A DNA stretch of 64,000 nucleotides from Candidatus Omnitrophota bacterium (GCA_028715345.1 JAQUSB010000005.1:10042-74041), one strand, 5' to 3'; positions 31,809 to 64,000 are shown, counted from the first letter of the stretch. The notes: a model not told the origin generated them from the sequence alone. Numbers and translations: made by a program.

Positions 31809-31845
31809 TAATCAAAACAATATACATAACGATAGTTGTATATTC

Positions 31846-33375
31846 TTACCCCCACAAATTCCTATCCAGGCTCCTGTATGAGATCGCTTCCGATATGTGA
31901 TGAGCTTCGATGATCTCTTTTCCGTCGAGATCAGCGATGGTGCGGGCTACTTTCAGTATCTTGTCGTAAGCTCTCGCCGAGATGCCGAGCTCGAGGATGG
32001 CGAGCTTCAGTAATTCCTCGCTCTCTTTATCGAGAACGCAGTATTTTTCCAGTTCTTTCGATTCCAGGTGGGCATTGAAATAAACGCGGTCATTTTTATA
32101 CCGCGCTTTCTGGACTTCGCGGGCTGAGTCTACGCGTTTGCGTATCTCTTCCGAAGGCTCGCCCCGGCGCTTGTCGGTGAGGTTTTCCAGTTTCAGCCGC
32201 GGGACCTCGAGGTGCATGTCTATCCTGTCGAGAAGCGGGCCGGATATCTTCGATAGATAATTCTGTATCTGGAAAGGGGAGCAGTGGCATTCGCGTTTCG
32301 GATCGGTAAAATAACCGCACGGGCAGGGGTTCATCGCGGCTACGAGCATAAATTTAGACGGGTAAGTAAGCCGATTTGAAACCCTGGAAATGGTAATAGA
32401 ACCTTCTTCGAGTGGTTGGCGCATTACTTCGAGGACGTTACGTTTAAACTCGGGCAGCTCGTCTAAGAACAGCACGCCGTTATGGGCGAGCGATATCTCG
32501 CCCGGCATCGGGTTCGGCCCCCCGCCGACCAATGCAGCGTCGGAAATAGTATGGTGAGGCGAGCGGAACGGCCTTGTCAGCATTAAACCTTTATTCGGCG
32601 GTAAGAGCCCGGCGACGCTCTGTATCTTGGACGTCTCTAAACTTTCCTCGAGCGTCATATCGGAAAGTATGGTAGGCAGGCGCTTGGCAAGCATACTCTT
32701 GCCCGAGCCGGGCGGGCCTATCAATAAAACATTATGGCCGCCCGCGGCGGCGACTTCGAGGCCGCGCTTCACGTGCTCCTGGCCCTTCACATCGTTAAAG
32801 TCGACCCTGTATCTTGCGGCCCGCTTCATGACGGTCTCCGTGCTGCATTTTTGCGGGGCCTGGATCCTGCCGTTCAGGAAATCTATCACGTCTTTCAGCG
32901 ATTCCATAGGGTAGACGCCGATATCGTCCACGACGGCCGCTTCTTTGGAATTTACTTTAGGAAGGATGAATTTTTTCCTGCCCGTCTTTTTCAGGGCCAT
33001 CGCTATCGGCAAAGCGCCTTTAATGGGCTTCAGTTTACCGTCGAGCGAAAGTTCGCCGCAGAAGACGAAATCGGATAAAAGGGAAGAGTCGGCCACGCCT
33101 TCCGTAGCGAGAATGGATAGCGCTATAGGCAGGTCGAACGACGAGCCCTCTTTCTTTATGTCGGCGGGCGCCAAGTTCACGGTGATCTTTTTCGCCGGGA
33201 ACGAATAGCCGGAATTCTTTATGGCCGATTTTATCCTGTCGCGCGATTCCTTTACGGCGGTATCCGGTAATCCCACTATATTTATGCCGGGCAGGCCTCC
33301 TCCGGTATCTGTCTCTACGATCACTTCATGAGCTTCGACGCCTATGACGCAGCTCGAAAATATCTTCGCGATCAC
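31846..33375 (-). CDS. comM: YifB/ComM family Mg-chelatase-like AAA+ ATPase
   Basis: N-terminal Lon-like S5 fold, Walker A 'GPPGSGKS', and a C-terminal ChlI-like domain. 509 aa. Confidence 0.8.
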   Translation of the reverse strand: MIAKIFSSCVIGVEAHEVIVETDTGGGLPGINIVGLPDTAVKESRDRIKSAIKNSGYSFPAKKITVNLAPADIKKEGSSFDLPIALSILATEGVADSSLLSDFVFCGELSLDGKLKPIKGALPIAMALKKTGRKKFILPKVNSKEAAVVDDIGVYPMESLKDVIDFLNGRIQAPQKCSTETVMKRAARYRVDFNDVKGQEHVKRGLEVAAAGGHNVLLIGPPGSGKSMLAKRLPTILSDMTLEESLETSKIQSVAGLLPPNKGLMLTRPFRSPHHTISDAALVGGGPNPMPGEISLAHNGVLFLDELPEFKRNVLEVMRQPLEEGSITISRVSNRLTYPSKFMLVAAMNPCPCGYFTDPKRECHCSPFQIQNYLSKISGPLLDRIDMHLEVPRLKLENLTDKRRGEPSEEIRKRVDSAREVQKARYKNDRVYFNAHLESKELEKYCVLDKESEELLKLAILELGISARAYDKILKVARTIADLDGKEIIEAHHISEAISYRSLDRNLWG

Positions 33376-48224: not shown

Positions 48225-48252
48225 AACTGCGGCAAAAGTCGAAAGGCTCGAA

Positions 48253-48284
48253 GAAGCAATCCGTAAGGGTTGCTTCTTTTTTTG
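48253..48284 (+). terminator. rho-independent terminator
   Basis: GAAGCAA-TCCGTAAGGG-TTGCTTC followed by a T8 run. Confidence 0.55.
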
Positions 48285-48352
48285 AGTTAAGTAGGAAAAA
48301 GATAGTTATCTTTCTATTGACTTAACAAAATATATGTTATAATTTTTCTACA

Positions 48353-51300
48353 ATGTTTATATATAAGCATAATATTATATCCAAAAGCATAATATTTGCG
48401 CTGGCATTTTCTTTCCTTTCCGACTCCGTAGTTTCCGCAAATCCCGATCTGCTTGCCCCTCAGGCAGGCAACCCTTCAGTCTATCGTCAAATCCGCACCA
48501 TGATGGAGAATAATTTTGACGAAAACAAACATATAGCAAAATTCGTAGAAGATCGCTCGGATAAAGCCAGAAAACTGTCGTATATCTCCGGCCTCGAAGA
48601 TGATTTCAGGCAATGCGTAAAGGCATCTGATGCGGAAGGCATGTTCATCAGGCTCAAAAGCACCCTCATCGCAGATGGTGGGAAGATCCAGCTCATAATT
48701 TTAGATAAAGGCGAAACGCCCCCGAAAAAATTGGGAGGGGAGAGCGTATGGGGATATGCCGATAAGGATATTACGGTCTTTGTTTCCGATGATGAGTGGG
48801 AGATACTCAAAAATGATCAAACGGCCGCGAAAGAAACTAAAAGAAAGATAATCGCCCGGCTATTTCATGAGATACGCGCGCGCTCTACAAAGGCCAAGGA
48901 ATTGTTCGAGAAAGGATACGGCAGAGATAAGCCTGACGCTTCTGCAGAAGTGCCGCAGTTCGTAAGATCCTTGCGTGAAAAATACGAAAAAAATAACCGC
49001 GAAATGGAGAAGGAAATAAAAAAGCACGGCCGGATCAAGAGCAAGGCTTTGCGCGAAGAATTCGCTGGTTTAACTTTCTTTGACGGCCGCCCCCAGCTCA
49101 TGAACCGCGACTACACGATGGCGGAAACTATCGGCATCGATGACCTGGTGGATCTATGCCGCAAAGCGGATGATCCGGTAAGCTGGATAAAAGCTTTTAA
49201 AAATTTGAGCGCTGTGGATATAAATTCCAAGGCTGACCGGAATAAGGCGATAAGGGTGTGCGAAGAGTTCCTGAATTCAAGGCGTACTACGGCCTGGCAT
49301 GTTTACGTCAATGAGTATTCGGGCTGGGGAAGCGCTTGTATGAGCGCCGAATTTTATATATCCAGATTTTTTGAGCGGATAAACCATAACAGCCAATGCC
49401 CCGGCGTATACCGATGTAAAGACAGCAGTATGTTCACCCTGCAGTCTCCTGTGTGCCCGGGAGTCGAGAATCGTTTCATCAAATCCCGGCCGCGAAATGA
49501 TACAACGCTGTTAGAATTCCGGAACGGACGCCTGGCTATGGTGGATAATGTTCCGGTGGATACGTATCTTGAGCATGTCTGGCCATCTTCGGATACGGAA
49601 GTTCTGTCCGGGATCAAAGAACAGCGGATAATACTCGAGAAAGAATATTTTATAGATTGCGACAAACCTATTTATCTGGGAGCGATAAATTACGGCAGAT
49701 ACAAGAGTTCTAAGACGACTTACGCTGTTTTGCTAAATGATCTATACGTTAGATATGAGGGAGGTAAACCCAGGTTCGATAGTAGCGGAGGCGGTCGTTC
49801 TTATAATTTAAAAGGCATGCTATTCGTATTATACGGAAGGTATAGCCTGGATAAACGTTTTCCTGCATTTAAGCTGGCCAGGCCATCCGTTGTTATCGAA
49901 AGCCTGTCGGAAAAATATCTTAAAGGCGATAGGGACAGCCTTAAGCTCCAGAAATTGTTTGCCAATCGCGAAACGGCTAGTTTGTGTGCCGGGACGCCGT
50001 CTAAAAAGCCGGTGCGCAAACCCGGCGATCCGTATTATATGGCTCATCCGGACAGCATTCCTCCCGAAGATCCCGATCAGGGGCCGGATCTCAACTATCA
50101 GCCTTTGCGCGCGCCGAAACCGCAAGAGGCGGGACAGGCTAAGCCAAGTGCGGATGAAGATTTTATTATATTTAACAAAGTTCGCATGCATTTAACCGAG
50201 GCAAAAAAAGAGCTAGAGAGTATATATCCTACAAAATCATTTTTATTCAATGCGCGTGTCAATAATGGCGTTGTTGAGATAGGTGTTGTGCCTAAAGGTA
50301 GCCCGAGGAACCACCTCTCTATTAACTATCCAGGATTCGAGGACGAAGGAGTTTACCGCGGCGCTGTGTGGGGTGACGGCGGCCTATTCGAAATGTTGCC
50401 ATATTTTGATGATACGGAATACCTTGAAGAAGACAGAACAGATGACATAGTTAAGTTGACGAGAATATTGAATGCGCAGATAGATGACCACATTTTAATA
50501 TCGAAAGCCATGATCGGGCTCGGATTATCCGAACGAACAAGCGTATTGAATGAATGGATGAAAGTCAAACTCGTGGAATGGAATAGGATAACGGGTAGGC
50601 CGAAGCTTGATACCGTAAAAGATATAGGTACGCTGAGTCGTCTCCGGCTTTCAAACCAATCCGAACCGCAAGCGGTCGAGCCGCCGAAACAGCAAGGGGC
50701 AGAGCGAAGACTGCCAGCGGAACCCGAAAATCTTACCCCTGAACCAACGGGAGATTTGTCGGGATCCGGCAGAGCGCTTACTTTATTGAAGGCAATAGAG
50801 ACGATAGAACCGGGCGCGGCAGGTGTATTTGGTTATGCCGCCGCTTTAACCATGTCGGTCATTACGATGGCTTTAGTAACGGACTTAGACCCGGTCATGT
50901 ATTTTATGCTGGGATCTATTGTGACATTGTCCACTGCTAAGATAATGACGAAGATAGCCGTGAGTTATATCAGGGCGCAGATGTGCGATGTCCTGCCTGC
51001 AGGAAGTATTGTAGGAATAGCTAAAAGATCCGGTATGAGAAGCATCTCTTCCGAAGAAGAATATGCTCTGACCAGGCTTGCGAAAACACTCCCTCCGAAT
51101 TTTGAGTTCCGTATATTTCGTAATTTGACGTATTGGAGATGGTTTACCCAGGGAGAATGGCCGTACGCCCCTGCAGGCATAGCGGAGATGATCGGTAAGC
51201 GGCACGTTGTATCCTTGATCGATTTTACTGCCACTCCGGACCGTATTGCTCACGAGCTCATACATGTGCTCCAGAGATCACAGGAGGAGCGTGACGCAGC

Positions 51301-54300
51301 CGTGCCGCTGGTCGTTCCGCTAGAACGGCTGCTGGGAGAGTTGGGCGGCGAAGAAGCGGCAGGGCTTTCTGCCGAAGTGAGACGTGTCAGGGAGGATTTC
51401 CTGGAATACTGGAAGCGTTTTAATGGTACGGACCAAACGAATGTTTCGATCGCGCTTGACTTAGAATTCGGAGCCTCTCTCTATCAGCGCATATTCGCCG
51501 CGGCTTTTGAAGGCGACGCAAGGGTGATCGACTGGGAAGATTTTGATCTCGAAAATAACGGCAGGTGGGATCCTGTGCTTGGCCGATATTTTCTCGAATT
51601 AAAAGCGCATAATCCTAAGTATTCCGATTATGTTAATTCCGTAAAAAGATTTATCGCTGCTATCGAAAAAACGGAAGATCAAAAGGTCAAACGCGCCATT
51701 CTGGATTTCCTGAGAAATTATTACATGTCGTTGCATATAGCTATCCCGCTGCCCGGTATCCTGCAGCTTCAATCGCCTGCGCTGAATGACCAGCCAGGGC
51801 GCGCGCCGAAGCCGCAAGATGCGGGGCAGACCCCCGATCCGGCCGCCGTCAAGAAGCGTTTTGAGGAATTACGCGTAAAATACGGCAGCAAGGCCGCCTG
51901 GCTTATGATATTGCAGGAGTTAGGGTTGCCGGAAAAGCTCGGTTTCAAGATACCCAACTTTGCCGTGCCTGACTCCGGTTTGATCATGAGGATCATCGAA
52001 AAGACGCAAAGGGCCCTTCGCGAATTTGACGATATAGAGCGCTCGTACGAGCGCTCGGATTTAAAATACCGCAACACAAAGCTTCATTTCGAGAAATTCA
52101 TCGAGGAGTTCATCGAGGGGAAATATGACGAGGAGGGGTTCGCGTCGATTATATCCGCGAATTACAAAGGATTTTTAAAATATGCTTCGATCGAAGAATG
52201 GAAAGAATTATTTCGTCACCTAAAAAAATCTTATTACTTAAAATTGTTCGAAAATGCCAAATATGGCGGTTCTCTCGTTCCGCCTTCTGTTTTATTAGAA
52301 ATAGCGAAACAGACCGTTACATCGGCCATGATCGATAAAATAAGTATGTATTACCTTGACGACGCGGAAAAACGCGAATTTTTCAAAATGGCAAGCGAGT
52401 TAGGAGAGCACAGGATATGGAGGTCTTCGGCATTCAATGAGGATACGTTCCTGTCGAGTATGGCGGGAAAATATCTCAGCTTGAGAACGGAAGAGTCGGC
52501 GCCGCTGGGTCCGGTATGCGACTTCGGTCCGGATCTTAGGGACAATGAAATTCGACCGCTGTATCAGGACTATATATTTGCCGAAAAATCGGGAATAGCC
52601 TTTTCGGACCTTGCCGGCATTACCACGATAGAGGCTGTGTTGGGCGAATGCGCGTCGGCAGTGATAGGGGAGAATAATACTATAATAGACATTGACCGCG
52701 AAACAGGCGTTATAAACGATATAAATTACGGTTTTTATCCTTCACCATCCGAATTTTCTATCGAGGGGGGTTCGCATGCAATATATATGGCGATGAAAAC
52801 GTCCGACATTGCCGCAAGGATGTGGAGCGAGAAGACCGTCGATGTGGTGACCGCCCGCGGCGGCAGAAAAAAATCTCCTTTATCTAAAGAAGAAATAGAG
52901 AGGGTCAGGGATGTCATTAGGGGGCTTCAAAAAGCTCTCGGCTTCCCGGTCGATATCGAATTTTCATTTGAGGGAAACGATTTCGATGTCCAACAGGTAA
53001 GGCCCATTACAGGAGACGACGACAAGAGATCGTTCGCGCTGCCGGACGCCGACTTGCCATCCGCAATAAACAGCTCTCCCATATCTATCGGATATACGGC
53101 TAATGAAGGTTTTGAAGGCAATATAGTGGAGGTTTATTCCACGCCGGAGCTTAAGGATTATTCCAAACGTTTAACGGGTAAATTATCCGAGAAGTTAAAG
53201 GAATTAGGCTATGCGCCGGATAATACCATTATAGCCATAGACCAACCGCTTCTTCTGGCAAGCGGTTACAATGTATTTATAAACACTCATAGTGCATCGC
53301 GAATTTATCACACGGGAATAAATTTTAGAGAAACAGATAAGATAATAGGCGGTATGCCAGGGTTCGATCTCTTTACTGCTCCGAAGATCGCGTGGGATGA
53401 GAAAGAAATTACTTTACAGGACTGGGAGGGTAAAGAGTATAAGGTCAGGGTAAGGGTAAGCAGGGATAAAGTACGATATTATTCGAACGGTTTCAGGGGT
53501 CTATTGGTCAGAGCGGTCGAGCCGCCGAAACCGCCTCTCGGAGGCGGGAGGGATATAGTCGGCCTCGAGGAGTTTGTTCTGGGAAATACGGCAGAGACGG
53601 TGGTCGGATACTTGATGGCGCATAGCACTGCACAGGATGAGGACGTAAGAAGGATACTTGCAAGGTCGGATCCTGTAAAGGCGGCAGAATTCGACAGGCT
53701 GATGTTGCGGGAGGCCGAACAAAATGTTACTGACGAAAAATTACAGAGAGATGATTTTCTTGGATCCGATAAGATGCCGGCGCTCAAACATATAAAAATC
53801 CGGAAATGGGTGCCGGCAAGGCAGATCTTCGAAACAGGGCAGAAGTATGCGGAAGGAAAAGATTCTAACGGCATCGCCCCTATCGGCGGCGTTCCCACAC
53901 ATTACCTTGAGGAGCTTATCCCGCACATAGTCGATGAAGTAGATAAGAAGGGGTGCGCAGTTTCATTTAAATCTGATCTCGAGGGTGCGGAAATTCTTTA
54001 TATAGGCCTTGGTTTTGATGTGACACCAATGATGCGGTTTATCCGTAAATATCCAAAAATTAAGGCGATCCATCTTTTGGATGTAAACTCAAAAACGTTC
54101 GGGGTCTTAGATATGCTTATTAACGAAAACAGGTCTGAGCTTCCCTCCGGGTTAAAGATATATGGATACCGGGCGACCGTGCTTGATATGCCGCAGGAAT
54201 TAACGGGAGCCATAGATATTGTGACAGATCGCAAAGTTTTTGATACGTGGGATGACAGAAGTTTTTCCTTGCCGCAAATAGACCGTGCCCTGGAGGAAAT

Positions 54301-57300
54301 TTACAGGGTCCTTAAGCCGGGCGGTATTCATTCTTCCTTCGGGAAGTTTGCGATAACCGAATATCCCGAAACTATCGATATGGAAGCATTGGGTAAACTT
54401 GACGCACGGGGTGAAGAGTCCTGTGTTTTTGTCAAGCCTCCCGCTGTAAACCCCGGGGAATTTAAACGCAACGAACTTACTGCGGGTGTCCGGGGAGCGC
54501 CGTCGCTTGCTATTTTGGCCGCAGGTCTGGCTTCCGGCATTATGCTTATGGCGGTCTTCTTCGTAAACGATGTCATATACGGTTTGCTTCGAAATGAAAG
54601 ATTTTACCAGTCTCTCCTGAACAAACATCCTAAGCTTTGCAGATTCCTTAAAGGCTTTTTTAACTATAGGATATTACCCGATCTTTGTTCTTCCTGGGCC
54701 GTAAGGCTGATACTTTCCGGACATGCCGAAAATAGTCCGCAGAAGGCGTCCTCCGCAGAAACTTCGTTAGTACCCGGCGATATAGACACGCTTATAACCG
54801 CTTTACAGGGCGGAGCCGATGAACTGGAATTTTATCGTCCGGCAGTCGCGCGGTTCCTGAATATAATTTTGTCACCCCATCTTATAAATGTTCCCGCCAG
54901 CCCCCATTCGGTATCGGAGGGCGATTATGAATCGGCTAAAAAACTGCATGCCTTTTTAGGGTTATGCGGCCCTGTTGTATATTCAAAATTTATAAAAATA
55001 GTGAATCAAATGGGATTTCAGGAAAAAGAGTTGTTCCTGGATCGGCCGTTAATTTCCGGCGTATTCAATTACGGCCATACCGTTGTACCCGATCCTTTAA
55101 TGGCGCATCAGGCTTTATATCCCGGTCTTTCCAGGGAAAGTCGGCGCGAACCTCTGGAATCGCTCGCCGGGCCGTGGTTAATGCTTGCAGGGGCCGATGA
55201 GTCTCAGTTGAAGGCGATTTTTGACGGCTGGCTGCATGGTGATGGCACAGTTGTTAATGAGGCGTGGTTTGGCGGCCTTATTGAAAGGGCAAAAGATAAC
55301 ATACGAAGGGCATTACCGGAAGGTAAAAGCTTATCACCCGTCGTTAATTTCTTTAGTAAACGCTCCAGACTAGATCCCATGGTGCCGACAGAGTCCAGGA
55401 TAATGTTTGGCTATATGGCCATAGGAGAGCTTGAAAAATTGCGCGGACAAGTGCCGAGAAAAGCTTTAACGCACGAAGGCGGAAAGGTAAGGAGGCTGCC
55501 CCCAGAAACAAAGCCTGCGAAAGAGGGGAAAGATTATGGAGACGACATACCCGAAGATTGGCTGGCCGGCGACGCCATTAAGTATCGCCCGCTGCCGGAT
55601 GATCCGGATCAGACCGGATGGGGCGGCATAGGCGAGCCCGGCCTTATCGAATACTTAAAGGACGGAACGATCCCGCCGGAGAGAGTCGCGAGACTTGCTT
55701 TGCAGGATATCAAAGAACATTTTATAGACGCCGACGGTTTTGTGTCAAGGCTGGACGATATGGCCAATGAAGCTAAAAAAGGCGGGAACCGCGATCTTGC
55801 GGGGGCATGCCGTGAAGTGATCGATATAATACGCGCCGGAAGGTCGTCGGAAGGTTTGTCGCCCGGTTCAGACGGGAACGGTGATGCGGGAAGAATTTCG
55901 AAGTTTTTCAAATGGGCAAAGCGGCTGTTTTCCGCCGCCGCAAGTTCGATTTCCAAAAACTTATCCATGCGGAAAAACGGCGCAGCGAATACAGTAAGCG
56001 TACTAAGGAGCCACCGCTGTATTTACTACAATATAAATATTAAAACGGCGGCGAAGATCCTGCTCGATGACGACACTAACGGCATACTCAATTTCCGGGC
56101 TAAAGGCGCATATTCGAAAATATCCTTTTACATGGATCGCAATGCCGCTCTTGCCCAATGCAAAGGAAATGGTGAAGAGTTTGTGCTTGAGTTCGACCTG
56201 TGGGAATGTTTGGACGCGAGGATTAAATTTACCGGTTCAACACAACCCGAAACGCACCACAAAGTGCCGCTGGAATTTCTTACCTATAACTGCAAAAAAG
56301 ATCTTGTAGCTAAAATGTGCGCGGTGCCGGAACTTAAAAAAGCCATTCTCGCCAAACAGCAGATTGTCGCGGAGAGGCTGGATTATACGTCATGGGAACA
56401 TCTGGCGGAGGAGATGGGTATTGCAGGCGACGGAGATCTCTGGGAGAATGCGTGGAATATGCCTATAATTACTTTTCGGGCAGTCCTGGGGGCCGGCGAA
56501 GACTTCGCGGCTTCGGCTTTTGACGGACATACTTATTTCATGCCGCGGGAGTTTGTCGCCGGAGATCTCGAAGGCGACGATCAGAGGACTCCTAGCTTGC
56601 GTAATCCTTATCGTCTCCCGGATGAACTTATCAATGAATTAAAATACAGGGCATTTTTGAAATATACGGAAAAAGATATCGCTGCCGATGAGATCACCCG
56701 GCGCTGCCGCGAAATATTTCCCGGGAATTATATCCCCGACCCGTACGGCAATATCGTGAGCAGGGTCGATACGGAGATAGAAACACTGCGCCTTAAATGC
56801 AAATCCGCCGCGAGATTTGTCGAAAAGCCTGTAAGGATATACGAGGTCAATGTGGCGGTCAGGATAAACGAATTGAAGAAAAGCCGGGGCGGCGCAAATC
56901 TGGCGGACCCCGATTTCCTGACGGATGAGAAACTCGAGGAGCTTAAAGCCCTCGGCTATACCCACGTCTGGCTTATGGGCGAGAAGGAAAGGGACGCGGC
57001 TGCGGCAGAGATCGCGGCATGGTTCGGCAAGGAAGGACCGTCCCCGTATGCGCTTAAATCGAACAACATCGACGAGGAATGGGGCGGAGAGGCCGCGCGT
57101 AATATACTTGCGGCCAGGCTAAAGAAATTCGGCCTTGAATTGGCAGGCGATCATGTAACCAACCATTTTGGGTTTGTCGGCGACATCATGCGCCGCTATC
57201 CTCAACTTTTCGTTATCAGGGACAAGAATCCCGCATTAATATCAGATTACTGGTTCGATTACGATGAATGGAAAAACCGGCATCCTGAAGTCCGGCCCAT

Positions 57301-60300
57301 TCCGGCATTGCAGGGCAAAGTAGTGCTGCGCGCGCAGGAAAGGCGCTGGGGCGGCGGGACGAAGACGCTGGGCACAGGCGACGTCGCGCAGATATCCATC
57401 CACTCGCCGGACGCGATCGATATAATTACGTCGCTTGTCGATGAGGCCGCGTCCAAAGTATGCGGCCCGGACGGACAGGGCGCAGGACTTCTCCGCTTCG
57501 ATCTCGCGCATTGCCTCTGGAGGAACGATCTGCTCGACCGCGTAGGAGGATTTTTAAGCTACGAAGAGTGGATGCGATTTAATAATAATTACCGCGGCAT
57601 AGAGCCGTGGAAAGTGATATTGAACCGGATAAGAAAAAAATACCCCAATCTTATTGCCGTGGCGGAAGTTTACGGAGGGGCTCAAAGTAACGCCGACCTC
57701 CTGGCTCTCGGTTTCGATTTCGCATACGATAAAGAGAGGGGTTTTTATGATATGGCGGTATTGCGGAAGGATGCGCTTAGCCTGAATGTGCATATGCGGC
57801 AATTGGAACTTATGAGGCGCGCGGGATTGTATTCGGTCCTTTTAGATGAGACTCATGACGAACACAGCATAGCAGGAATATGCCCCCGAGCGCAGCATGC
57901 CGCGATCCTTTTCCTGCGCCGTTTGAGCGGCCATGCCGAACTTATGTTCTCCGGGGAAGAATCGGGTATGGATTGGGGCAAACATAACGCCGAAGACAAG
58001 TGGCCAAGGGATTTTAAGGGAGACTTGTCGAGAAGAGCTATGTATGAGCATCCCTTATTGAAGCACCCCGCTCTTATGCACGGCAGACGGAAGCCTCTTG
58101 CCGCTTTGAACGGCAACGGCCAGGAAGGCGCTATTGCCGCGTATATTCTGGAGCATGAAGGGAAGCGCTACCTTGGAATGGCCAATATAAGTAATTCGGT
58201 CGCAAAGGGAAGGGTCAACCTGGATCCCGATTCGATATTTGACAACAAGTCGACGTTCTTCAGGTTCAGGGACATTGTCGGTGATTACAATAAATGGGCG
58301 GCTCAAAGCGGCTATGCTCCGGCGCATACCGAAGAAACCGCCCACGTTCACCGTCGGCAGGAACTTAAGTCCCTGTACGTGGAGCTCGAGCCGAATAATG
58401 TCCAATTATTCGAAATTGCTCCGTCTGAAAACGCCCGGCCTACCGGTAAGGTTGTCCCCGACGGAGATGTCGCGGTGAAAGGATTTGCCGATTTCTATCC
58501 GAAGCTGACAAATGACAATACGCAGCCTCTTAAGGAGAACAGGGTCGTATATGTGACGGTCGATTTTACGGATCGCGTCGCAGGAAAAGATGTCAGGCTA
58601 ATAATGCACTGCGCAGGCGCGGACGGAAGAAGTCATTCTTCCGTCGAAGGTCGGTATGCGGACGATTTTAAAGAAAGCCACAGGTTTAAATTTGTCGTTC
58701 CCGAGGGCACGGGGGAGTACACTCTGGAAACATCTTTTGATAGAGGCGCAACTTGGTATCCGATGGGATGGAACATAAAGATAGCCGGAGCGCAGCCTAT
58801 CGGCGGCGGCAGGGATATAGTAAGCCTCGAGGATTTCGCCCGGGATCACACGGCGGCGCAGATAGTAGGATATTTGAAGGCGCATGGTGTCGATCAGGCA
58901 GATGATATCAGACAGATACTGGCATCGTCGGATCCGGAAAAAGCTAAGGAATTCGATAAGCTCCTCGGTCTTGCGGGGTCACAGGCCGGTATGGTGCAGA
59001 TCGCGCCTGCCGGCGCGAAATTCTACAAGATGCCGGAGGATAGACTGCCGAAGCCTGCTGTGCTGCAGCCCTCCGCACAAAAAACGCAGACAGACGAAGA
59101 GGCCGCCGTGATAAGTGATGCGATAATAAATAAAGGCGAAATGTATCCGATGGGCGGAGAGGCGATGAGCGCCATAGAAGGGGATGATATATATATCGTA
59201 ACGAGGGTGCCGGATGAGTTTTTGAATAAAGAAGGTCTTGAGGTATGGATATGTTCCGATTTAAACGGCGGCTGGGAAAATACGGTAAGGATGGAGAAAG
59301 TTATTAAAGAAAATCCCGGTGAAGATAGATTTGTGGGAAAGATCAGACTTAACAGGGCAGGGACTGTGCAATACAAATGCCGCTGGTTGATACGCGAAAA
59401 CGGCCGCATAAGTTCCCAGGGGTGGGCGACGCCGCCATCGAAGAACTGTTGTATTCTCGTAAGGCAGAAGAATGACTCGCGGGAAGAAGGCGTTAGCACG
59501 GAAGAAAGATCCGTAATGCTCCGGGCCTTCAGGCGTGCGCTGGCGGGTGAGAGAATGGACCCGCGATACTTCGAGCGCAGGATAAATTATAAATTTATTA
59601 AGGACGCCCTTGAAAATCGCAGAGGCTTGAGCACTAAGAACCTGCCTGAGGATTTTGAAGAAGCCGTTTATAATATTTTCTTATCCCGGGTAATCTCGAA
59701 TAATGCCGAGTGGGACATCGTAGACCGCAGTTATCAGCCATCGCAGGCGCAAAACGAGGCTGTGCAGGAGGCAGGAGCCCTGTTAACGGAATTTTATGGG
59801 TTTAAGATAGATCTTTTGCCTCTGGTTTTATGGGGCGATCCCAAGAGGCAAACTAATAATGGGGAGGCCCTTACCATACATGATTTTATTATTATAAATA
59901 GTAAAGAGCACGTTAAAGCTCAATTGCGGCATCATCTTGTGCATGAATTTTTACATCAATTCGAAGGACGACCGAAACTTTATTGTCCTTCTCTGGAAGA
60001 GTCCGTAGTGGATTATCTCACAATGGTTATTTGTAAAGATTACAACCTGGGGAATTACTACTACAGGGAAGGCATGAAACTTGTAGGCATTCTTGTCGAT
60101 CTGGTCGGTTTTGAAAAAGTGTACAGATTTTTCCGGGACACAGACTTTAAAGGCATGGAGGAGTCGCTGGGAGATAGCGGAGAAAGGGTTTTAAGGATCT
60201 TGATGTCGTATTATTTTGCTACAGATGCTGATATATTCCCCGAACCGATAAAAGATGCCCAGGAAGATCCGGAGAGCGCAAAAATAAGCTTCAGGGAATT

Positions 60301-63300
60301 TTTAGCTAACAGGAATAACACAGCCTATCTGGACTCATTCGAACAGGAGACGGAGGTTAAGCGTGAAGGTGATCTGGTATTAGAAGCAGGTATTAGGAAT
60401 ATGCGTTCAAGGGCTTTGGGTATCGGAGTACAGCCGATGGATGTCCTGGGCCAATTGCTTAATAATATATTTGAAAGGAGCGCGATCAAATCGGATCGGG
60501 AGAGGATCGAAAAAAATCCGCCGCTGTCTTTACCCGACCTGGAAGCCCAGGTAAATAGAATAAGGGAAGAGTGGCTCAATACCCATTCCATGCCTGCCGC
60601 ATCCGGAGTTGCCGAGGAGGTTAACTTTTCATATAACTTCTCTCCGGAATTGTTTAGGCGCATGGATGCTTTAGCGCGCCCTGTGAAGTTGATAGATGAA
60701 GCCGTAGATGAGTCGGCAACGCCGAACAGCATAGATATCGAAGATTTCGATTCCTTAGACCGCGAGATCAAAGCCCAAGCGGATGGGGTGTCCATCGAGA
60801 AGATGGCAATGGAGATATTGGGTAATGCGAAGGGCGGAATATGCAGGGCTAAAGGAGCGCTGGAGCCCGGGAATATTCGCTGGAAAATGGAAGAGTTCAG
60901 GTTATCCGACCAGACGGTGCTGAAGATAACTATCACCCAATCGGCTTGCAAGAACGATGATTGGGTGTATCTAAAAGAAAACGCGGCCGTTGCGGATAAG
61001 GAAGGTATAGGATTTTTGACTGACACAGGGAACGCCAGACAGCTGTCAAAACATTTTTTTGAAAAAGGCAACGGCCTGAGCTATTTCGCATCGGTCGCAA
61101 AGCGGCACGGCGGCTGGCTGCGTTTTAGAAGAGGCGCCGAAGGCGACAATCCTATGACAACGGAATTATTCTTACGCATAAGAGAACGTGTTCCCGAAAA
61201 GCTCCGTCTGCCGGTTTTGAACGCATTAAAGAATGAGCCGGCCGGCTCCGTATGGGAATTTACGGCTCAAATATCCGAAGTTTTCAAAGAGGCCGCATCT
61301 CTTTTTGTCAAATATCCGTTTGGAGGCAGGCCTCCCGAAATCTGGGCGGCGAATGAAGACTGGTTTTTTGAGCCGTGGGGAAGGGATGAATTCATTTCTC
61401 TGCCGGGACTTCTTATCACTACGGGGAAGCTTGAGGACGCAAAAAAGATATTCCGGCTGTTCGGCTCGTTCCAGAAGGACGGGCTCATCCCGAACCGTAT
61501 ATTCGATACCTCGAAAAAAGAATCGGCTATGTATAATACTTCGGATGCCTCGTTATGGTTTATACAAGCGCTTAAAAAATATGCGGTGTCTACCGGCGAT
61601 TGGGATTTTGCCGTCGAGATGCTTCCCGCCGTGCAGGCCGTGATCAGCGGCTACGAAAACGGCACGGGATATATGCATTATAATCGATTTAACAGTATTA
61701 AAATGGACCCTTCCGACGGTCTCGTAGTAACTCCGGCCCAGTCGACCTGGATGGACGCCGATCCTTATGGAGCGGACCACCCGGTGACGCCCCGTAACGG
61801 CAAGGCGGTCGAGATAAATGCCTTGTGGTATTCGAATTTAAGGTTCTTTGCCGGGCTATTAGAAAAGTCCGGAAAAGATAAGGCAATGTCGGAGCATTAC
61901 GCCAAGCTTGCCGATAAGGTCAAGGTCAGTTTCAACGATAAATTCTGGAACGACAAGCCTAAATCTTCCGGCATTTCGGATGAAAAAGAGGGCGCGCTCT
62001 TCGATGTTATCGAAGGCGATCCTCATGGCGGAGCAATACGCCCGAACATGATCTTTGCCGTAAGTAACGGCGATGACATCCTCTCCCCGGAAAGGCAGAG
62101 ATCGGTCCTGAAGGCAGTGACGGCCGACCTGCTTACGCCTTATGGGCTCAGGACTTTATCTCCGAGAGACTCTCATTACAAAGGCTATTATTTTACGGAC
62201 CTGCCGATGCATGAAAAGGATCAGGCTTATCACCAGGGGCCTGCATGGCCGTGGCTTATAGGAGCGTATGTCGATGCTCTTTGCACGGTAATGAAAAATG
62301 AAGGAGCGTCAAATGACGAAATAGAGGCAAAGACGCGCGAAATACTCGAGCCCTTAACGCTATTTATGTTTAAATTCGGATCTTTGCCGGAACTTTTTGA
62401 CGGCAATTTACCGCAGTGTCCCGGCGGCACGCATTCGCAGGCTTGGAGCGTCGCCGAAGTCTTCCGCGCGCTCGTCGAGCACGGCGGCATAAGTATAAAA
62501 CCCGAGAGTTCGGCCGACGGCGTCGAAAACGGCCCGCGCACCCAACCAGACGACGGTTTTACCGCGCCTCCCGGCGAAGCACGAGTTTTTACGCGTCAAA
62601 TAACCGTGAAGCCGGGCCGTGTCATTCATGCGAATCCGGGGTGGGTATTAAATCGTTTAAAGTACGAGATAGACAGGAAGGCAGGCGGAAAAGTAGCTAT
62701 GTCTCTTAATGCCACAGGAGATATAAAATACACGGCCGATTTTGATCATTTTACTCAGTTTACATCATTCCCGGAAGTAGAAGAGGTGAGCCCCTATATC
62801 CTGGTATCGATCTCGAGTGTCAGCGAAGATCTTGCCAACCGGGTCCTGGAGTTATTTGATCGGCTTTTAAAAGATACCGATGTACTTGAACAGCGCAAAC
62901 CCGCAACGCCGGACGACTACGTGCTAGACGACTACATAAATGAAATAAGGGCCTGGCCCGCCGAAAATGCAGCAGCTTTGGCCGCAGATGAGGCGCTGGA
63001 AGAGATACTTAAAATTATTCCGGGTGCGCTGAATTTTACCGATTTTATGGCAGAGCTGGCGCTGATACTGCAAATAGCCGATATTTTCCGGCAAGATAAC
63101 TCAACCTTTATATTTTCCGAAAAAATTGCATTCGATAACAGGTTGGCAGCATTTTTGCCGAAGCTGATAGATCAAAAGAAAGGCGCCAAGGTTGGCGTTC
63201 TACTCAGCAGTGAAGATAATCAAAAAGCGGAAAGAGAAAAAGCTTTGATCGATATATTGAATAAAGGCAAGCCCAGGGCTGAATGGATAGAGTGCGCGAC

Positions 63301-63526
63301 GACAATAGCCGAGCTAAGAGCCAACACTCCTTCGGCAAGATATTATTATTTCCGAATGCGCGGCGATCCTGAAGATCCGGGATTGGCAGGTGTCTCTACA
63401 ATGCCCGAGCTGACGCCTGATATGGTCAAAAGGATAATAGATTCTATATGTAAGGCCTGCCGAGTCGAGCTCGAGAAGCTTCCTCTTCTGCACGAACTTG
63501 CCAGAATATTCGCGGAGGCCGCGTAA
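48353..63526 (+). CDS. giant multidomain secreted/membrane protein (5057 aa)
   Basis: Uninterrupted 15,174-nt ORF with a signal-like N-terminus and hydrophobic TM segments near 50815..50965 and 54490..54590. HExxH 'HELIHVLQ' lies at about 51247 and 'HEFLHQFE' at about 59925. A PPDK_N/dikinase-like ATP-grasp spans about 52150..53015 ('RSSAFNEDTFLSSMAGKYLS' to 'PVDIEFSFEGNDFDVQQVRPIT'). A SAM-MTase-like segment spans about 53985..54335 ('ILYIGLGFD', 'VLKPGGI'). The GH13-like regions I-IV at about 56900..58150 are 'DHVTNH', 'LLRFDLAHC', 'AVAEVYGG' and 'LLDETHDEH'. A GDE/GH133-like domain spans about 61380..62480 ('VEINALWYSN', 'LRTLSP...AYHQGPAWPWLIGAY'). Confidence 0.8.
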   Translation: MFIYKHNIISKSIIFALAFSFLSDSVVSANPDLLAPQAGNPSVYRQIRTMMENNFDENKHIAKFVEDRSDKARKLSYISGLEDDFRQCVKASDAEGMFIRLKSTLIADGGKIQLIILDKGETPPKKLGGESVWGYADKDITVFVSDDEWEILKNDQTAAKETKRKIIARLFHEIRARSTKAKELFEKGYGRDKPDASAEVPQFVRSLREKYEKNNREMEKEIKKHGRIKSKALREEFAGLTFFDGRPQLMNRDYTMAETIGIDDLVDLCRKADDPVSWIKAFKNLSAVDINSKADRNKAIRVCEEFLNSRRTTAWHVYVNEYSGWGSACMSAEFYISRFFERINHNSQCPGVYRCKDSSMFTLQSPVCPGVENRFIKSRPRNDTTLLEFRNGRLAMVDNVPVDTYLEHVWPSSDTEVLSGIKEQRIILEKEYFIDCDKPIYLGAINYGRYKSSKTTYAVLLNDLYVRYEGGKPRFDSSGGGRSYNLKGMLFVLYGRYSLDKRFPAFKLARPSVVIESLSEKYLKGDRDSLKLQKLFANRETASLCAGTPSKKPVRKPGDPYYMAHPDSIPPEDPDQGPDLNYQPLRAPKPQEAGQAKPSADEDFIIFNKVRMHLTEAKKELESIYPTKSFLFNARVNNGVVEIGVVPKGSPRNHLSINYPGFEDEGVYRGAVWGDGGLFEMLPYFDDTEYLEEDRTDDIVKLTRILNAQIDDHILISKAMIGLGLSERTSVLNEWMKVKLVEWNRITGRPKLDTVKDIGTLSRLRLSNQSEPQAVEPPKQQGAERRLPAEPENLTPEPTGDLSGSGRALTLLKAIETIEPGAAGVFGYAAALTMSVITMALVTDLDPVMYFMLGSIVTLSTAKIMTKIAVSYIRAQMCDVLPAGSIVGIAKRSGMRSISSEEEYALTRLAKTLPPNFEFRIFRNLTYWRWFTQGEWPYAPAGIAEMIGKRHVVSLIDFTATPDRIAHELIHVLQRSQEERDAAVPLVVPLERLLGELGGEEAAGLSAEVRRVREDFLEYWKRFNGTDQTNVSIALDLEFGASLYQRIFAAAFEGDARVIDWEDFDLENNGRWDPVLGRYFLELKAHNPKYSDYVNSVKRFIAAIEKTEDQKVKRAILDFLRNYYMSLHIAIPLPGILQLQSPALNDQPGRAPKPQDAGQTPDPAAVKKRFEELRVKYGSKAAWLMILQELGLPEKLGFKIPNFAVPDSGLIMRIIEKTQRALREFDDIERSYERSDLKYRNTKLHFEKFIEEFIEGKYDEEGFASIISANYKGFLKYASIEEWKELFRHLKKSYYLKLFENAKYGGSLVPPSVLLEIAKQTVTSAMIDKISMYYLDDAEKREFFKMASELGEHRIWRSSAFNEDTFLSSMAGKYLSLRTEESAPLGPVCDFGPDLRDNEIRPLYQDYIFAEKSGIAFSDLAGITTIEAVLGECASAVIGENNTIIDIDRETGVINDINYGFYPSPSEFSIEGGSHAIYMAMKTSDIAARMWSEKTVDVVTARGGRKKSPLSKEEIERVRDVIRGLQKALGFPVDIEFSFEGNDFDVQQVRPITGDDDKRSFALPDADLPSAINSSPISIGYTANEGFEGNIVEVYSTPELKDYSKRLTGKLSEKLKELGYAPDNTIIAIDQPLLLASGYNVFINTHSASRIYHTGINFRETDKIIGGMPGFDLFTAPKIAWDEKEITLQDWEGKEYKVRVRVSRDKVRYYSNGFRGLLVRAVEPPKPPLGGGRDIVGLEEFVLGNTAETVVGYLMAHSTAQDEDVRRILARSDPVKAAEFDRLMLREAEQNVTDEKLQRDDFLGSDKMPALKHIKIRKWVPARQIFETGQKYAEGKDSNGIAPIGGVPTHYLEELIPHIVDEVDKKGCAVSFKSDLEGAEILYIGLGFDVTPMMRFIRKYPKIKAIHLLDVNSKTFGVLDMLINENRSELPSGLKIYGYRATVLDMPQELTGAIDIVTDRKVFDTWDDRSFSLPQIDRALEEIYRVLKPGGIHSSFGKFAITEYPETIDMEALGKLDARGEESCVFVKPPAVNPGEFKRNELTAGVRGAPSLAILAAGLASGIMLMAVFFVNDVIYGLLRNERFYQSLLNKHPKLCRFLKGFFNYRILPDLCSSWAVRLILSGHAENSPQKASSAETSLVPGDIDTLITALQGGADELEFYRPAVARFLNIILSPHLINVPASPHSVSEGDYESAKKLHAFLGLCGPVVYSKFIKIVNQMGFQEKELFLDRPLISGVFNYGHTVVPDPLMAHQALYPGLSRESRREPLESLAGPWLMLAGADESQLKAIFDGWLHGDGTVVNEAWFGGLIERAKDNIRRALPEGKSLSPVVNFFSKRSRLDPMVPTESRIMFGYMAIGELEKLRGQVPRKALTHEGGKVRRLPPETKPAKEGKDYGDDIPEDWLAGDAIKYRPLPDDPDQTGWGGIGEPGLIEYLKDGTIPPERVARLALQDIKEHFIDADGFVSRLDDMANEAKKGGNRDLAGACREVIDIIRAGRSSEGLSPGSDGNGDAGRISKFFKWAKRLFSAAASSISKNLSMRKNGAANTVSVLRSHRCIYYNINIKTAAKILLDDDTNGILNFRAKGAYSKISFYMDRNAALAQCKGNGEEFVLEFDLWECLDARIKFTGSTQPETHHKVPLEFLTYNCKKDLVAKMCAVPELKKAILAKQQIVAERLDYTSWEHLAEEMGIAGDGDLWENAWNMPIITFRAVLGAGEDFAASAFDGHTYFMPREFVAGDLEGDDQRTPSLRNPYRLPDELINELKYRAFLKYTEKDIAADEITRRCREIFPGNYIPDPYGNIVSRVDTEIETLRLKCKSAARFVEKPVRIYEVNVAVRINELKKSRGGANLADPDFLTDEKLEELKALGYTHVWLMGEKERDAAAAEIAAWFGKEGPSPYALKSNNIDEEWGGEAARNILAARLKKFGLELAGDHVTNHFGFVGDIMRRYPQLFVIRDKNPALISDYWFDYDEWKNRHPEVRPIPALQGKVVLRAQERRWGGGTKTLGTGDVAQISIHSPDAIDIITSLVDEAASKVCGPDGQGAGLLRFDLAHCLWRNDLLDRVGGFLSYEEWMRFNNNYRGIEPWKVILNRIRKKYPNLIAVAEVYGGAQSNADLLALGFDFAYDKERGFYDMAVLRKDALSLNVHMRQLELMRRAGLYSVLLDETHDEHSIAGICPRAQHAAILFLRRLSGHAELMFSGEESGMDWGKHNAEDKWPRDFKGDLSRRAMYEHPLLKHPALMHGRRKPLAALNGNGQEGAIAAYILEHEGKRYLGMANISNSVAKGRVNLDPDSIFDNKSTFFRFRDIVGDYNKWAAQSGYAPAHTEETAHVHRRQELKSLYVELEPNNVQLFEIAPSENARPTGKVVPDGDVAVKGFADFYPKLTNDNTQPLKENRVVYVTVDFTDRVAGKDVRLIMHCAGADGRSHSSVEGRYADDFKESHRFKFVVPEGTGEYTLETSFDRGATWYPMGWNIKIAGAQPIGGGRDIVSLEDFARDHTAAQIVGYLKAHGVDQADDIRQILASSDPEKAKEFDKLLGLAGSQAGMVQIAPAGAKFYKMPEDRLPKPAVLQPSAQKTQTDEEAAVISDAIINKGEMYPMGGEAMSAIEGDDIYIVTRVPDEFLNKEGLEVWICSDLNGGWENTVRMEKVIKENPGEDRFVGKIRLNRAGTVQYKCRWLIRENGRISSQGWATPPSKNCCILVRQKNDSREEGVSTEERSVMLRAFRRALAGERMDPRYFERRINYKFIKDALENRRGLSTKNLPEDFEEAVYNIFLSRVISNNAEWDIVDRSYQPSQAQNEAVQEAGALLTEFYGFKIDLLPLVLWGDPKRQTNNGEALTIHDFIIINSKEHVKAQLRHHLVHEFLHQFEGRPKLYCPSLEESVVDYLTMVICKDYNLGNYYYREGMKLVGILVDLVGFEKVYRFFRDTDFKGMEESLGDSGERVLRILMSYYFATDADIFPEPIKDAQEDPESAKISFREFLANRNNTAYLDSFEQETEVKREGDLVLEAGIRNMRSRALGIGVQPMDVLGQLLNNIFERSAIKSDRERIEKNPPLSLPDLEAQVNRIREEWLNTHSMPAASGVAEEVNFSYNFSPELFRRMDALARPVKLIDEAVDESATPNSIDIEDFDSLDREIKAQADGVSIEKMAMEILGNAKGGICRAKGALEPGNIRWKMEEFRLSDQTVLKITITQSACKNDDWVYLKENAAVADKEGIGFLTDTGNARQLSKHFFEKGNGLSYFASVAKRHGGWLRFRRGAEGDNPMTTELFLRIRERVPEKLRLPVLNALKNEPAGSVWEFTAQISEVFKEAASLFVKYPFGGRPPEIWAANEDWFFEPWGRDEFISLPGLLITTGKLEDAKKIFRLFGSFQKDGLIPNRIFDTSKKESAMYNTSDASLWFIQALKKYAVSTGDWDFAVEMLPAVQAVISGYENGTGYMHYNRFNSIKMDPSDGLVVTPAQSTWMDADPYGADHPVTPRNGKAVEINALWYSNLRFFAGLLEKSGKDKAMSEHYAKLADKVKVSFNDKFWNDKPKSSGISDEKEGALFDVIEGDPHGGAIRPNMIFAVSNGDDILSPERQRSVLKAVTADLLTPYGLRTLSPRDSHYKGYYFTDLPMHEKDQAYHQGPAWPWLIGAYVDALCTVMKNEGASNDEIEAKTREILEPLTLFMFKFGSLPELFDGNLPQCPGGTHSQAWSVAEVFRALVEHGGISIKPESSADGVENGPRTQPDDGFTAPPGEARVFTRQITVKPGRVIHANPGWVLNRLKYEIDRKAGGKVAMSLNATGDIKYTADFDHFTQFTSFPEVEEVSPYILVSISSVSEDLANRVLELFDRLLKDTDVLEQRKPATPDDYVLDDYINEIRAWPAENAAALAADEALEEILKIIPGALNFTDFMAELALILQIADIFRQDNSTFIFSEKIAFDNRLAAFLPKLIDQKKGAKVGVLLSSEDNQKAEREKALIDILNKGKPRAEWIECATTIAELRANTPSARYYYFRMRGDPEDPGLAGVSTMPELTPDMVKRIIDSICKACRVELEKLPLLHELARIFAEAA

Positions 63527-63530
63527 CGCA

Positions 63531-64000
63531 GATGAGTATATACAAAAATAGATACGGTGGATTATTCAAGGCGATAGCCGCGATACTACTGTGCGCGTTT
63601 TTGCTCAGCGACATCGCCTGGGCGATGCCGCAGGGCCGTGATCCGTCCATACACGCTACACTTGCCACGGAATCGAGATTTAACAGGATAACGGACTTCT
63701 TCAATGGGAACAGGCTCGATTTCAAGATGAGGGCGGATGTCCTCTACGCGGCCGTCCGTTTAAGAGAATTGATCTTAGGACAAGGCGCGCTTAATGAAGA
63801 CAAAGTCATCGCGATAAAGCGCGAGATCAATACGCTCAACAGGAGATTTCCCGGAGGCGCCGCAAAAATAAGCGAAGACGTAAAACTTTATAAAGAGCTG
63901 GAATCGAGCGGCCGTAAATATCATTCGGTAACTTTTGAATTTAGAAGAGAGGGCGAAGAGCCATACCCCGTAGACCTGCTTTTATTCCCCGATTACTCGC
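63531..64000 (+). CDS. hypothetical secreted protein, 3' end beyond window
   Basis: ATG 4 nt after the giant-gene stop, with GGAGG about 12 nt upstream. Signal-like 'LFKAIAAILLCAFLLSDIAWA'. Open to the window end. Confidence 0.4.

Follow-up and report, generated by a model that had tools for sequence, protein, structure and literature searches.

Omnitrophota are abundant, ultra-small, host-dependent bacteria, and their huge genes are among the least understood features of microbial dark matter. Giant open reading frames (ORFs) occur across the phylum (Seymour et al.). One report describes Archaeovorins with glycosyl transferases and hydrolases, methyltransferases, PPDK_N, HAD and radical S-adenosylmethionine (SAM) modules (West-Roberts et al., 2023; bioRxiv 10.1101/2023.11.21.568195). 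A second defines a class, the "multi-enzyme metabolic cluster", in which a sugar-metabolism module occurs; it gives a signal peptide or transmembrane (TM) helices for 94% of long proteins, and discusses their localisation as unresolved (Nielsen and Lui, 2026; bioRxiv 10.64898/2026.06.07.730766). In this study, a 64,000-nt stretch of a Candidatus Omnitrophota genome (GCA_028715345.1 JAQUSB010000005.1:10042-74041; hereafter the window) was analyzed, with emphasis on a single ORF of 5,057 codons at 48353..63526 (+ strand, as are all features of its protein described below), referred to as the giant.

The giant resembles the published Omnitrophota proteins in (i) its phylum, (ii) the presence of a signal peptide and/or TM helices, (iii) diverse enzyme domains tiled without a dominant repeat, (iv) a recurrent sugar/alpha-glucan, PPDK_N, methyltransferase, radical-SAM and HAD content, (v) large unannotated stretches and (vi) the uniqueness of its sequence. 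It differs in size, the published proteins having at least 10 or at least 30 thousand amino acids (kaa), compared with 5,057 amino acids (aa) for the giant and 0.4-5 kaa for its family. A further difference is that most published proteins contain SecA_DEAD or C39 domains, whereas the giant has no SecA_DEAD or C39/S8 domain, and SecA_DEAD is found in one other family member. The domain combination, which the original prediction for this DNA had called unusual, is typical of Omnitrophota, because published giant multi-enzyme proteins carry such modules: sugar-metabolism, PPDK_N, methyltransferase and radical-SAM modules recur among them. Taken singly, the giant is thus one more multi-enzyme protein of a known class, already deposited under a partial name. 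Its most informative feature, missed in that prediction and not visible from a single sequence, is a pair of conserved termini defining a family with swappable cargo. Neither this pair of N- and C-terminal modules, nor a sub-10-kaa family, nor the exchange of cassettes was found in the accessible text of West-Roberts et al. (2023) and Nielsen and Lui (2026) or in literature text searches.

A protein family with conserved ends and exchanged interiors

A search with aa 1-4300 matched only the giant itself and P0002, a 3,814-aa protein with DnaJ, WD40, thioredoxin, radical-SAM, pseudouridine-synthase and methyltransferase modules. The two proteins are similar only over aa 1-257 of the giant (38% identity, E 1e-47) and the last 161 aa (49%, E 7e-38); their interiors are unrelated, and both end with ...LPLLHELA..FAEAA. 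P0002 was recovered, identical or nearly so, from three independent samples. A profile of both end-modules (referred to as the N-module and the C-module) was searched exhaustively with HMMER against 1.84 billion cluster representatives, a library clustered at 50% identity. This search yielded 181 proteins at E <= 1e-3 (127 at E <= 1e-10), from fragments up to the giant, which is the longest member and the second-best overall match (N-module E 2e-92, C-module E 1e-47). With few exceptions, the N-module is located at the N-terminus or close to it, and in nearly all of the matches listed the end of the C-module coincides with the last residue of the protein or falls only a few residues short of it. 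Both modules are present in 22 of the 153 proteins retrieved, most of the others being cut by contig ends. All members with a source name come from Omnitrophota. A scan of GTDB species-representative genomes with the C-module gave no match, a scan of JGI metagenomes only another copy of P0002, and a word-indexed search with the C-module only P0003, a 236-aa fragment.

The cargo between the ends comprises 48 Pfam families in 27 proteins, mostly enzymes of cytoplasmic type. It includes phosphofructokinase, glucose-6-phosphate isomerase, glutamate dehydrogenase, MutS, SecA, radical SAM/B12, GH77 and trehalose synthase, as well as sigma-54 AAA, response regulator, HATPase_c, LRR and PPDK_N domains; Fic, inositol monophosphatase and CheR are found in small members. 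Where the N-modules of two members are 70-80% identical and their C-modules 78-87%, no similarity of the cargo was detected (0%), and only 1 of 136 pairs, the giant and P0010, has common cargo, namely the PPDK_N module. Since closely related ends carry unrelated cargo, this pattern is one of cassette exchange between conserved ends, with the caveat that members of similar cargo are removed from a library clustered at 50% identity. Judged from these sequence comparisons, the N-/C-module pair defines a family of Omnitrophota modular proteins of which the giant is a member.

The N-module (aa 30-262; 48440..49138) contains the motif LAPxxGNPxxY, a three-stranded sheet and a long helix with the invariant FHEIRARS; the giant has WGYAD where the family has WGHAG. 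Its AlphaFold2 model, built from the family alignment, is mostly helical, with the sheet preceding the FHEIRARS helix (predicted local distance difference test, pLDDT, 86), and a Foldseek search with this model gave no match. The C-module (aa 4896-5057; 63038..63526; ending in ...LLHELARIFAEAA-COOH) was modelled in the same manner with high confidence (pLDDT 92.3, predicted TM-score 0.87) as a Rossmannoid alpha/beta domain flanked by helices, and on this model its core fold is Rossmannoid HAD. No Pfam model corresponds to either module.

At the position that we take, by eye, to be HAD motif I, the C-module has an invariant S-E-K in place of DxD, and the nucleophile of the DxDx(T/V) motif, which in HAD proteins stands at the end of strand 1, is missing. 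The giant's copy also lacks the motif-IV-like aspartates of the family, and the modelled domain is probably not a phosphatase. The extreme C-terminus (63509-63523) is almost invariant across the family, ...(K/R)FA(E/Q)(A/S)A-COOH; the terminal -AA after a hydrophobic residue presumably recalls the recognition tails of the ssrA type and of tail-specific proteases. A beta-barrel or beta-sandwich sorting domain was considered for the C-module and is ruled out by the confident alpha/beta model. In P0091 (4,505 aa; L009/L010 10001-23518), a partial copy of the C-module fold lies internally (aa ~1323-1432) besides the terminal one; because of this copy, the C-module is regarded as a domain able to occur internally and not only as a terminal tag.

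No conserved neighbouring gene was found across six family loci, and these loci contain no extra family copies. Two family genes adjoin integrase/restriction-modification or toxin-antitoxin islands. The gene of P0008 (L008 1-9600) lies beside a resolvase, a phage integrase, a DNA methylase/Bsp6I restriction enzyme and a GIY-YIG gene, and that of P0010 (L005 500-10300) beside HigB-like, BrnT/BrnA and PemK toxin-antitoxin pairs and a LAGLIDADG gene, followed by tRNA-synthetase and ribosomal genes.

Alpha-glucan enzymes of the giant

The best-defined cargo domain is a GDE_C/GH133 amylo-alpha-1,6-glucosidase (alpha/alpha)6 domain (aa 4335-4705; 61355..62467). It matches PF06202 with E 1.4e-101 (340.5 bits, cut-off 21) over model positions 22-367 of 367, and aligns with the solved yeast and human glycogen debranching enzymes (GDE; PDB chains E 1e-25). 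Residues D4345 (WGRDEF), D4468 (TWMDA) and E4680 (LPELF) align with D1078, D1241 and E1492 of CgGDE, and with D1261 and E1502 of hsGDE. In the solved enzymes these residues include the general acid Asp, the general base Glu and a glucose-coordinating Asp, and mutagenesis showed them to be essential for glucosidase activity (PMC4837477; PMC12219210). Judged by profile and alignment, the GDE_C/GH133 assignment, which had been predicted from the sequence by inspection, is unambiguous and the catalytic residues are intact. The cut-offs for full-length GDE equivalogs are not reached, neither for the eukaryote-type model TIGR01531 (130.3 vs. 1,399.55) nor for the archaeal-type model TIGR01561 (217 vs. 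364.15).

A divergent GH13 catalytic module occupies aa ~2829-3366 (56837..58450). The direct match to PF00128 is below the cut-off (11.8 bits vs. 22; E 0.14; aa 2859-2945 only), and no NCBIfam model matches. The predicted GH13-like core was established through intermediate sequences: a search of 5.8 billion sequences with aa 2820-3380 found P0004 (E 7.4e-13), P0005 (E 1.6e-9) and P0006, all three of which carry PF00128. In the four-way alignment (A7), the invariant residues are D2933/N2937/H2938 in region I (spaced D-x3-N-H), R3048/D3050 in region II (R-x-D), E3105 in region III and H3168/D3169 in region IV, and the profile of this alignment matches PDB alpha-amylases with E 3e-41. By the standard GH13 scheme, these regions supply the nucleophile Asp, the acid/base Glu and the transition-state Asp. 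In these alignments the GH13 core is real, very divergent and has an intact D/E/D triad, so that the residues of both glycosidases (GH13 D/E/D, GDE acid/base) are in place. Two beta-rich segments following the GH13 module (aa ~3400-3480 and ~3610-3700; window 58550-59450; LEVWICSDLNGGWENT...QYKCRW) look, by eye only, like carbohydrate-binding modules (CBM); Pfam CBM profiles, including CBM45 and CBM20, gave no match on the giant at E <= 1.

ATP-grasp, methyltransferase-like and HExxH segments

A PPDK_N-type ATP-grasp module was identified by Pfam, NCBIfam and BLASTP at aa 1144-1614 (51782..53194). Its core (aa 1315-1560) contains WRSSAFNEDTFLSSMAG and DIEFSF...QVRPI. The PF01326 (PPDK_N) match scores 33.7 bits (cut-off 27) over the last quarter of the model only (positions 238-316); NCBIfam models of phosphoenolpyruvate (PEP) synthase, PigC and rifampin phosphotransferase also match, the PigC alignment spanning the whole core. 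The module is common to the giant and P0010 (BLASTP E 1e-18), whose own PPDK_N match has E 6.8e-11. No phospho-histidine swivel domain (PEP-utilizers) matched at E <= 1 in Pfam or NCBIfam. Of the dikinase-type domain claimed in the original prediction, the ATP-grasp stands; a dikinase or glucan,water-dikinase-like function is not established, because neither a phospho-histidine swivel nor a glucan-binding module was detected. A degenerate swivel look-alike, which no profile detects, can be seen by eye at aa ~1580-1665 (window 53090-53350). After the ATP-grasp, the giant and P0010 share P.S.G.T...GF.G..V.V.S and later SR..H.IN, and the putative phospho-histidine position is His in the giant (NTHSASR) and Gln in P0010.

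A segment resembling class-I SAM-methyltransferases (aa 1849-1992; 53897..54328) is matched by three related Pfam models, which agree on the region and all remain sub-threshold: Methyltransf_11 (E 1.5e-3; 19.5 bits vs. 21.2), Methyltransf_12 (15.1 vs. 30) and Methyltransf_25 (13.3 vs. 27). The NCBIfam ArsM model matches over the same residues with E 4e-3. A SAM-methyltransferase is on these profiles a probable part of the cargo, its earlier assignment as a recognisable class-I enzyme being unproven. In profile searches, GDE_C and PPDK_N were thus recovered, and Methyltransf_11 and, in its direct match, Alpha-amylase stayed sub-threshold.

The giant contains two HExxH motifs (0.12 expected from its composition): AHELIHVLQ (aa 967-971; 51251..51265) and VHEFLHQFEG (aa 3864-3868; 59942..59956). 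Neither region has a match in Pfam, NCBIfam or the PDB, or any similarity to the family N-module profile. The motifs are present, and the two zincin-like domains that they had been taken to represent are unproven, having neither profile nor family support.

Internal repeats and linkers

BLASTP self-comparison revealed no long internal repeats, and two short elements recur. The first is a proline-rich linker (QGPDLNYQPLRAPKPQEAGQ; consensus QP.RAPKPQ.AGQ), detected by local alignment and as a DNA repeat, with copies of 25 aa at aa 575-599 (50075..50149) and aa 1139-1163 (51767..51841) that are 76% identical in DNA sequence; the region around the first copy (aa 544-617) shares 50% identity with part of member P0028. 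The second is a 57-aa module at aa 1727-1784 (53531..53704), after the ATP-grasp region, and aa 3481-3538 (58793..58966), after the GH13 region, each copy thus directly following an enzyme block. Its pattern is P.GGGRDIV.LE.F...VGYL.AH...D.R.ILA.SDP.KA.EFD, the local alignment score is 180 (shuffles 27.5 +/- 5.1) and the corresponding 168-nt DNA repeat is 70% identical; this module was not found in the other retrieved family members. A phmmer search of the PDB with aa 1-2700 gave no match at E <= 1.

Integrity and record of the gene

The giant ORF starts with ATG and has no internal stop codon, and ORFs in alternative frames or on the opposite strand within its limits reach no more than 248 and 158 aa, as short as had been claimed. 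In DNA of ~50% G+C, chance origin of a 5,057-codon open frame is excluded, because (61/64)^5057 ~ e^-243. Along the ORF, the G+C content (0.45-0.51) stays uniform, as does the positive GC skew, and both match the remainder of the window. The exact protein is recorded in GenBank as MDD5427994.1 ("amylo-alpha-1,6-glucosidase", Candidatus Omnitrophota bacterium) on a 74-kb contig of a metagenome-assembled genome (MAG). A Logan contig of SRR22315506 (18.5 kb), which comes from a different assembler and possibly from the same reads, encodes the same 5,057 aa without a difference. The giant ORF is a single, genuine gene from the genome of a Candidatus Omnitrophota bacterium, in agreement with the predicted single uninterrupted frame and with the guess of an uncultivated nanobacterial phylum as its source.

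Leader, topology and possible function

Hydropathy and the family alignment point to a Sec-type signal-peptide-like leader at aa 1-29 (48353..48439), with an N-terminal hydrophobic segment at aa 8-30. In the giant, the leader consists of MFIYKHNIISK, SIIFALAFSFL and SDSVVSA, the last directly followed by N. In the N-module-bearing group it has the conserved pattern M.(I)YKN.Y..LFK.IA..LVCLF, after which comes TLAPxxGNPxxY. An n-h-c arrangement like that of a signal peptide opens nearly all full-length members; these have 0-2 internal hydrophobic segments, and few have any. A lipoprotein signal was rejected: the family Cys is located within the hydrophobic core and is not part of a lipobox, and the giant has no Cys at this place. 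By Kyte-Doolittle hydropathy, two internal hydrophobic segments were found where they had been predicted. The first (50822..50962) comprises aa 824-842 (nt 50822-50878; hydropathy 1.8) and a weaker stretch at aa 848-870, and would form one or two membrane spans; the second, strongly hydrophobic (aa 2053-2071; 54509..54565; hydropathy 2.4), is a predicted membrane span.

Beyond the integrity of the gene, its family membership, the domain identities and the catalytic residues, any role of the end-modules is one that we infer. The reading that we favour, with roughly even confidence, is that the giant is the longest known member of an Omnitrophota modular carrier family, carrying an alpha-glucan toolkit and spanning the membrane twice, with its glycosidases outside. 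The chassis would consist of the conserved Sec-type leader, usually the ~230-aa N-module, and the ~160-aa HAD-like C-module always ending the protein (...FAEAA), and unrelated enzyme cassettes would have been swapped in between these ends during evolution. The giant's toolkit would include the divergent GH13, the GH133, the PPDK_N ATP-grasp and the probable SAM-methyltransferase. The leader would direct the protein to the Sec translocon, and aa 824-842 and 2053-2071 would cross the membrane once each; the 1,200-aa ATP/SAM-dependent block between them would stay cytoplasmic. Outside the cytoplasmic membrane would then lie the N-module and the C-terminal block of 3,000 aa (GH13, GH133 and C-module), where they would trim and debranch glycogen-like alpha-glucan from the environment or from the host or prey cells that these bacteria need. 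Two spans are favoured because the modules requiring ATP and SAM lie exactly between the two strongest hydrophobic segments, and because an even number of spans keeps the C-module on the same side as in span-less members. The secreted extracellular machine originally proposed is an overstatement, since ATP- and SAM-dependent modules cannot work outside the cell.

Several observations weigh against the two-span carrier. Export and both spans are read from hydropathy; K/R residues are richer after aa 2071 than before it, and the positive-inside rule reads the second span in the opposite orientation; aa 848-870 may be a third span, and the model would then be inverted. Members that lack spans, e.g., P0002, would have their radical-SAM, pseudouridine-synthase, J-domain and thioredoxin modules exported, without obvious cofactors or substrates outside, and for this reason the cofactor logic fails for the family as a whole. 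Moreover, about half of the giant (aa 270-820, 880-1140, 2080-2830 and 3540-4330) is without detectable relatives or domains, and clustering of the searched library at 50% identity by design collapses members with similar cargo.

The normal location of the cargo speaks for a different arrangement, which we nevertheless regard as doubtful, namely a cytoplasmic, membrane-tethered scaffold whose leader is an uncleaved anchor and whose enzymes all face the cell's own cytoplasm and process its own storage glycogen. The family as a whole would then serve to attach a variety of housekeeping-type enzymes to the membrane. Every recognisable cargo domain of the family is normally cytoplasmic, needing ATP, SAM, NAD(P), Fe-S or nucleic-acid substrates, and bacteria and archaea have their GDE_C/GH133 enzymes and most of their GH13 glycogen enzymes in the cytoplasm. 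The leaders, however, have n-region charge, a short h-region and a small-x-small c-region, like cleavable Sec signals; their N-in/C-out orientation places the bulk of the protein outside, and their strong sequence conservation suggests dedicated targeting. DeepTMHMM results published for signal-peptide-bearing Omnitrophota giants also put the enzyme content outside.

The same intracellular character of the cargo (phosphofructokinase, glucose-6-phosphate isomerase, glutamate dehydrogenase, MutS, radical SAM, sigma-54 AAA, response regulators, Fic), in members that have signal-peptide-like leaders and mostly no internal spans, would also be expected of a delivered effector polyprotein, an explanation that we consider unlikely. 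The chassis of leader and end-modules would here bring cytoplasmic-type enzymes into the cytoplasm of another cell, host or prey, whose glycogen the giant would mobilise with the victim's own ATP and SAM; export of radical-SAM and RNA-modifying enzymes by span-less members makes little sense unless they act inside another cell. This is consistent with conserved ends and swapped cargo, with the two family genes beside integrase/restriction-modification or toxin-antitoxin islands, and with the host-dependent or predatory life of Omnitrophota described in the literature. In a MARTX-like variant, the HExxH modules of the giant might first cut the protein at the repeated proline-rich linkers; HExxH occurs twice where 0.12 is expected, and the linker QP.RAPKPQ.AGQ is both repeated in the giant and conserved in P0028, but the HExxH regions have no protease profile support and other members lack the motif. 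Delivery as such is opposed by the failure to find translocation machinery, pore-forming repeats or, in the six loci, conserved neighbouring secretion genes, and by the C-module, a soluble Rossmannoid domain and not a known translocator or secretion-signal fold; the giant's two hydrophobic spans would, in addition, tend to hold it in the producer's membrane. The broader proposal, that the chassis is an Omnitrophota-specific system which exports interchangeable enzyme cassettes and possibly delivers them into host or prey, the giant being its largest carrier and a glycogen-mobilising effector, is in our judgement likewise improbable.

An artefact or decay (an assembly chimera, genes fused by sequencing errors or a non-expressed pseudogene), to which the MAG origin and the half of the protein without homologues might point, is very improbable and largely refuted by a 15.2-kb open frame impossible by chance, an identical protein from a second assembler, two ends matching a family of which at least 22 other proteins combine the same two modules, the repeated recovery of P0002 from independent samples, intact catalytic residues in both glycosidases, and uniform G+C and skew.

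Genomic surroundings

Direct reading of the sequence revealed a promoter-like element (TTGACT-15 nt-TATAAT; 48317..48343, + strand) ending 9 nt before the ATG of the giant; it was not listed by a consensus scan because its spacer is 15 nt. A terminator-like hairpin (48250-48279) lies upstream of this element, and no Shine-Dalgarno sequence was seen in the sequence preceding the start. From these sequence features, the mRNA of the 15-kb gene may be leaderless or near-leaderless and transcribed from its own promoter. Only 5 nt separate the stop codon of the giant from the start of the next gene (63532..64000, + strand), which encodes at least 895 aa on the Logan contig (L001:15824-18508). It bears the leader of the giant's family, MSIYKNRYGGLFKAIAAILLCAFLLSDIAWA, and has no N-module, no similarity to the N-module beyond the leader and no Pfam domain; a GGAGG within the last codons of the giant (encoding ..AEAA) lies 13 nt 5' of its ATG.

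The window is a bacterial chromosome segment with secA, lnt, a class II aminoacyl-tRNA synthetase gene and lolCE-like ABC genes, and with dnaG and rpoD directly upstream of the giant gene. Region 22189-26752 encodes a canonical full-length SecA (wing/scaffold and SEC-C) and the apolipoprotein N-acyltransferase Lnt, with an overlapping ORF for a small PQ-loop/SemiSWEET-like sugar transporter (26192-26752). Since full-length SecA and Lnt are encoded in the window, the genome has ordinary Sec export and a lipoprotein-maturation gene. Positions 26000-32000 form a block of low G+C content (0.40-0.46 vs. ~0.50 elsewhere), in which one ORF encodes a PIN domain (27744-28427) and three others lack convincing matches in Pfam (28464-31092); the block may have been horizontally acquired. 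The genes for tRNA-Ala(GGC) and tRNA-Leu(CAA) lie at 7244-7421, with 17 nt between them; a 312-aa ORF with a GTG start (7341-8279) overlaps tRNA-Leu, and its true start is probably further downstream.

Significance and comparison with known systems

Two short, well-conserved and confidently modelled end-modules make this class of proteins tractable, with ~180 related protein clusters whose interiors are exchanged. Its small members, e.g., a 451-aa protein composed of the leader, Fic and the C-module, can be used for experiments, and the end-modules provide a sequence signature by which genes of this kind can be catalogued in complete genomes. The family also raises the question of why glycolytic, DNA-repair, radical-SAM and glycogen enzymes sit behind a secretion signal. 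Should the chassis turn out to be a delivery device, it would be a new means by which hosts are manipulated; should it turn out to be a membrane tether, minimal cells would have an unusual way to organise their metabolism.

In layout only, the family resembles MARTX and polymorphic toxins: very large proteins in which conserved ends flank variable enzyme cassettes, and related ends carry unrelated cargo. In contrast to MARTX, no RTX-type repeats, cysteine-protease autoprocessing domain or type I secretion genes were detected, and the cargo is mostly housekeeping-type metabolism and not recognised toxins, with one Fic exception. Cargo proteins of the type IX secretion system (T9SS) with a C-terminal domain (CTD), and autotransporters, share with the family a signal peptide, a variable passenger and a conserved extreme C-terminal domain across a large family. 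They differ in that the family C-module is an alpha/beta Rossmannoid (HAD-like) domain and not a beta-sandwich CTD or a beta-barrel, in the internal partial copy of the C-module in P0091, and in that no cognate machinery was identified.

With PEP synthase, pyruvate phosphate dikinase (PPDK), rifampin phosphotransferase, glucan,water dikinase and PigC, the giant has in common the ATP-grasp with its RSSxxxED...AG and DxE...Q.RP signatures. Unlike these enzymes, it has no detected phospho-histidine swivel, PEP/pyruvate or glucan-binding domain, and it scores 16-26 bits against equivalog cut-offs of 850-1,300. From the eukaryote-type GDE/AGL (PDB 5D06, 8ZEQ) and the archaeal-type GDE (TIGR01561; PDB 7VMA), the giant differs in its leader and predicted membrane spans, in scores far below the equivalog cut-offs, and in its GH13 module, which is placed ~1,000 aa from GH133, is most like small alpha-amylases and is not specifically related to the GDE transferase domain. 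Its GH133 domain is nevertheless homologous to theirs (E 1e-25), with the catalytic Asp and Glu kept, as well as the Asp that binds the leaving glucose, and, as in the eukaryote-type enzyme, the GH13 and GH133 families occur in the same order on one polypeptide.

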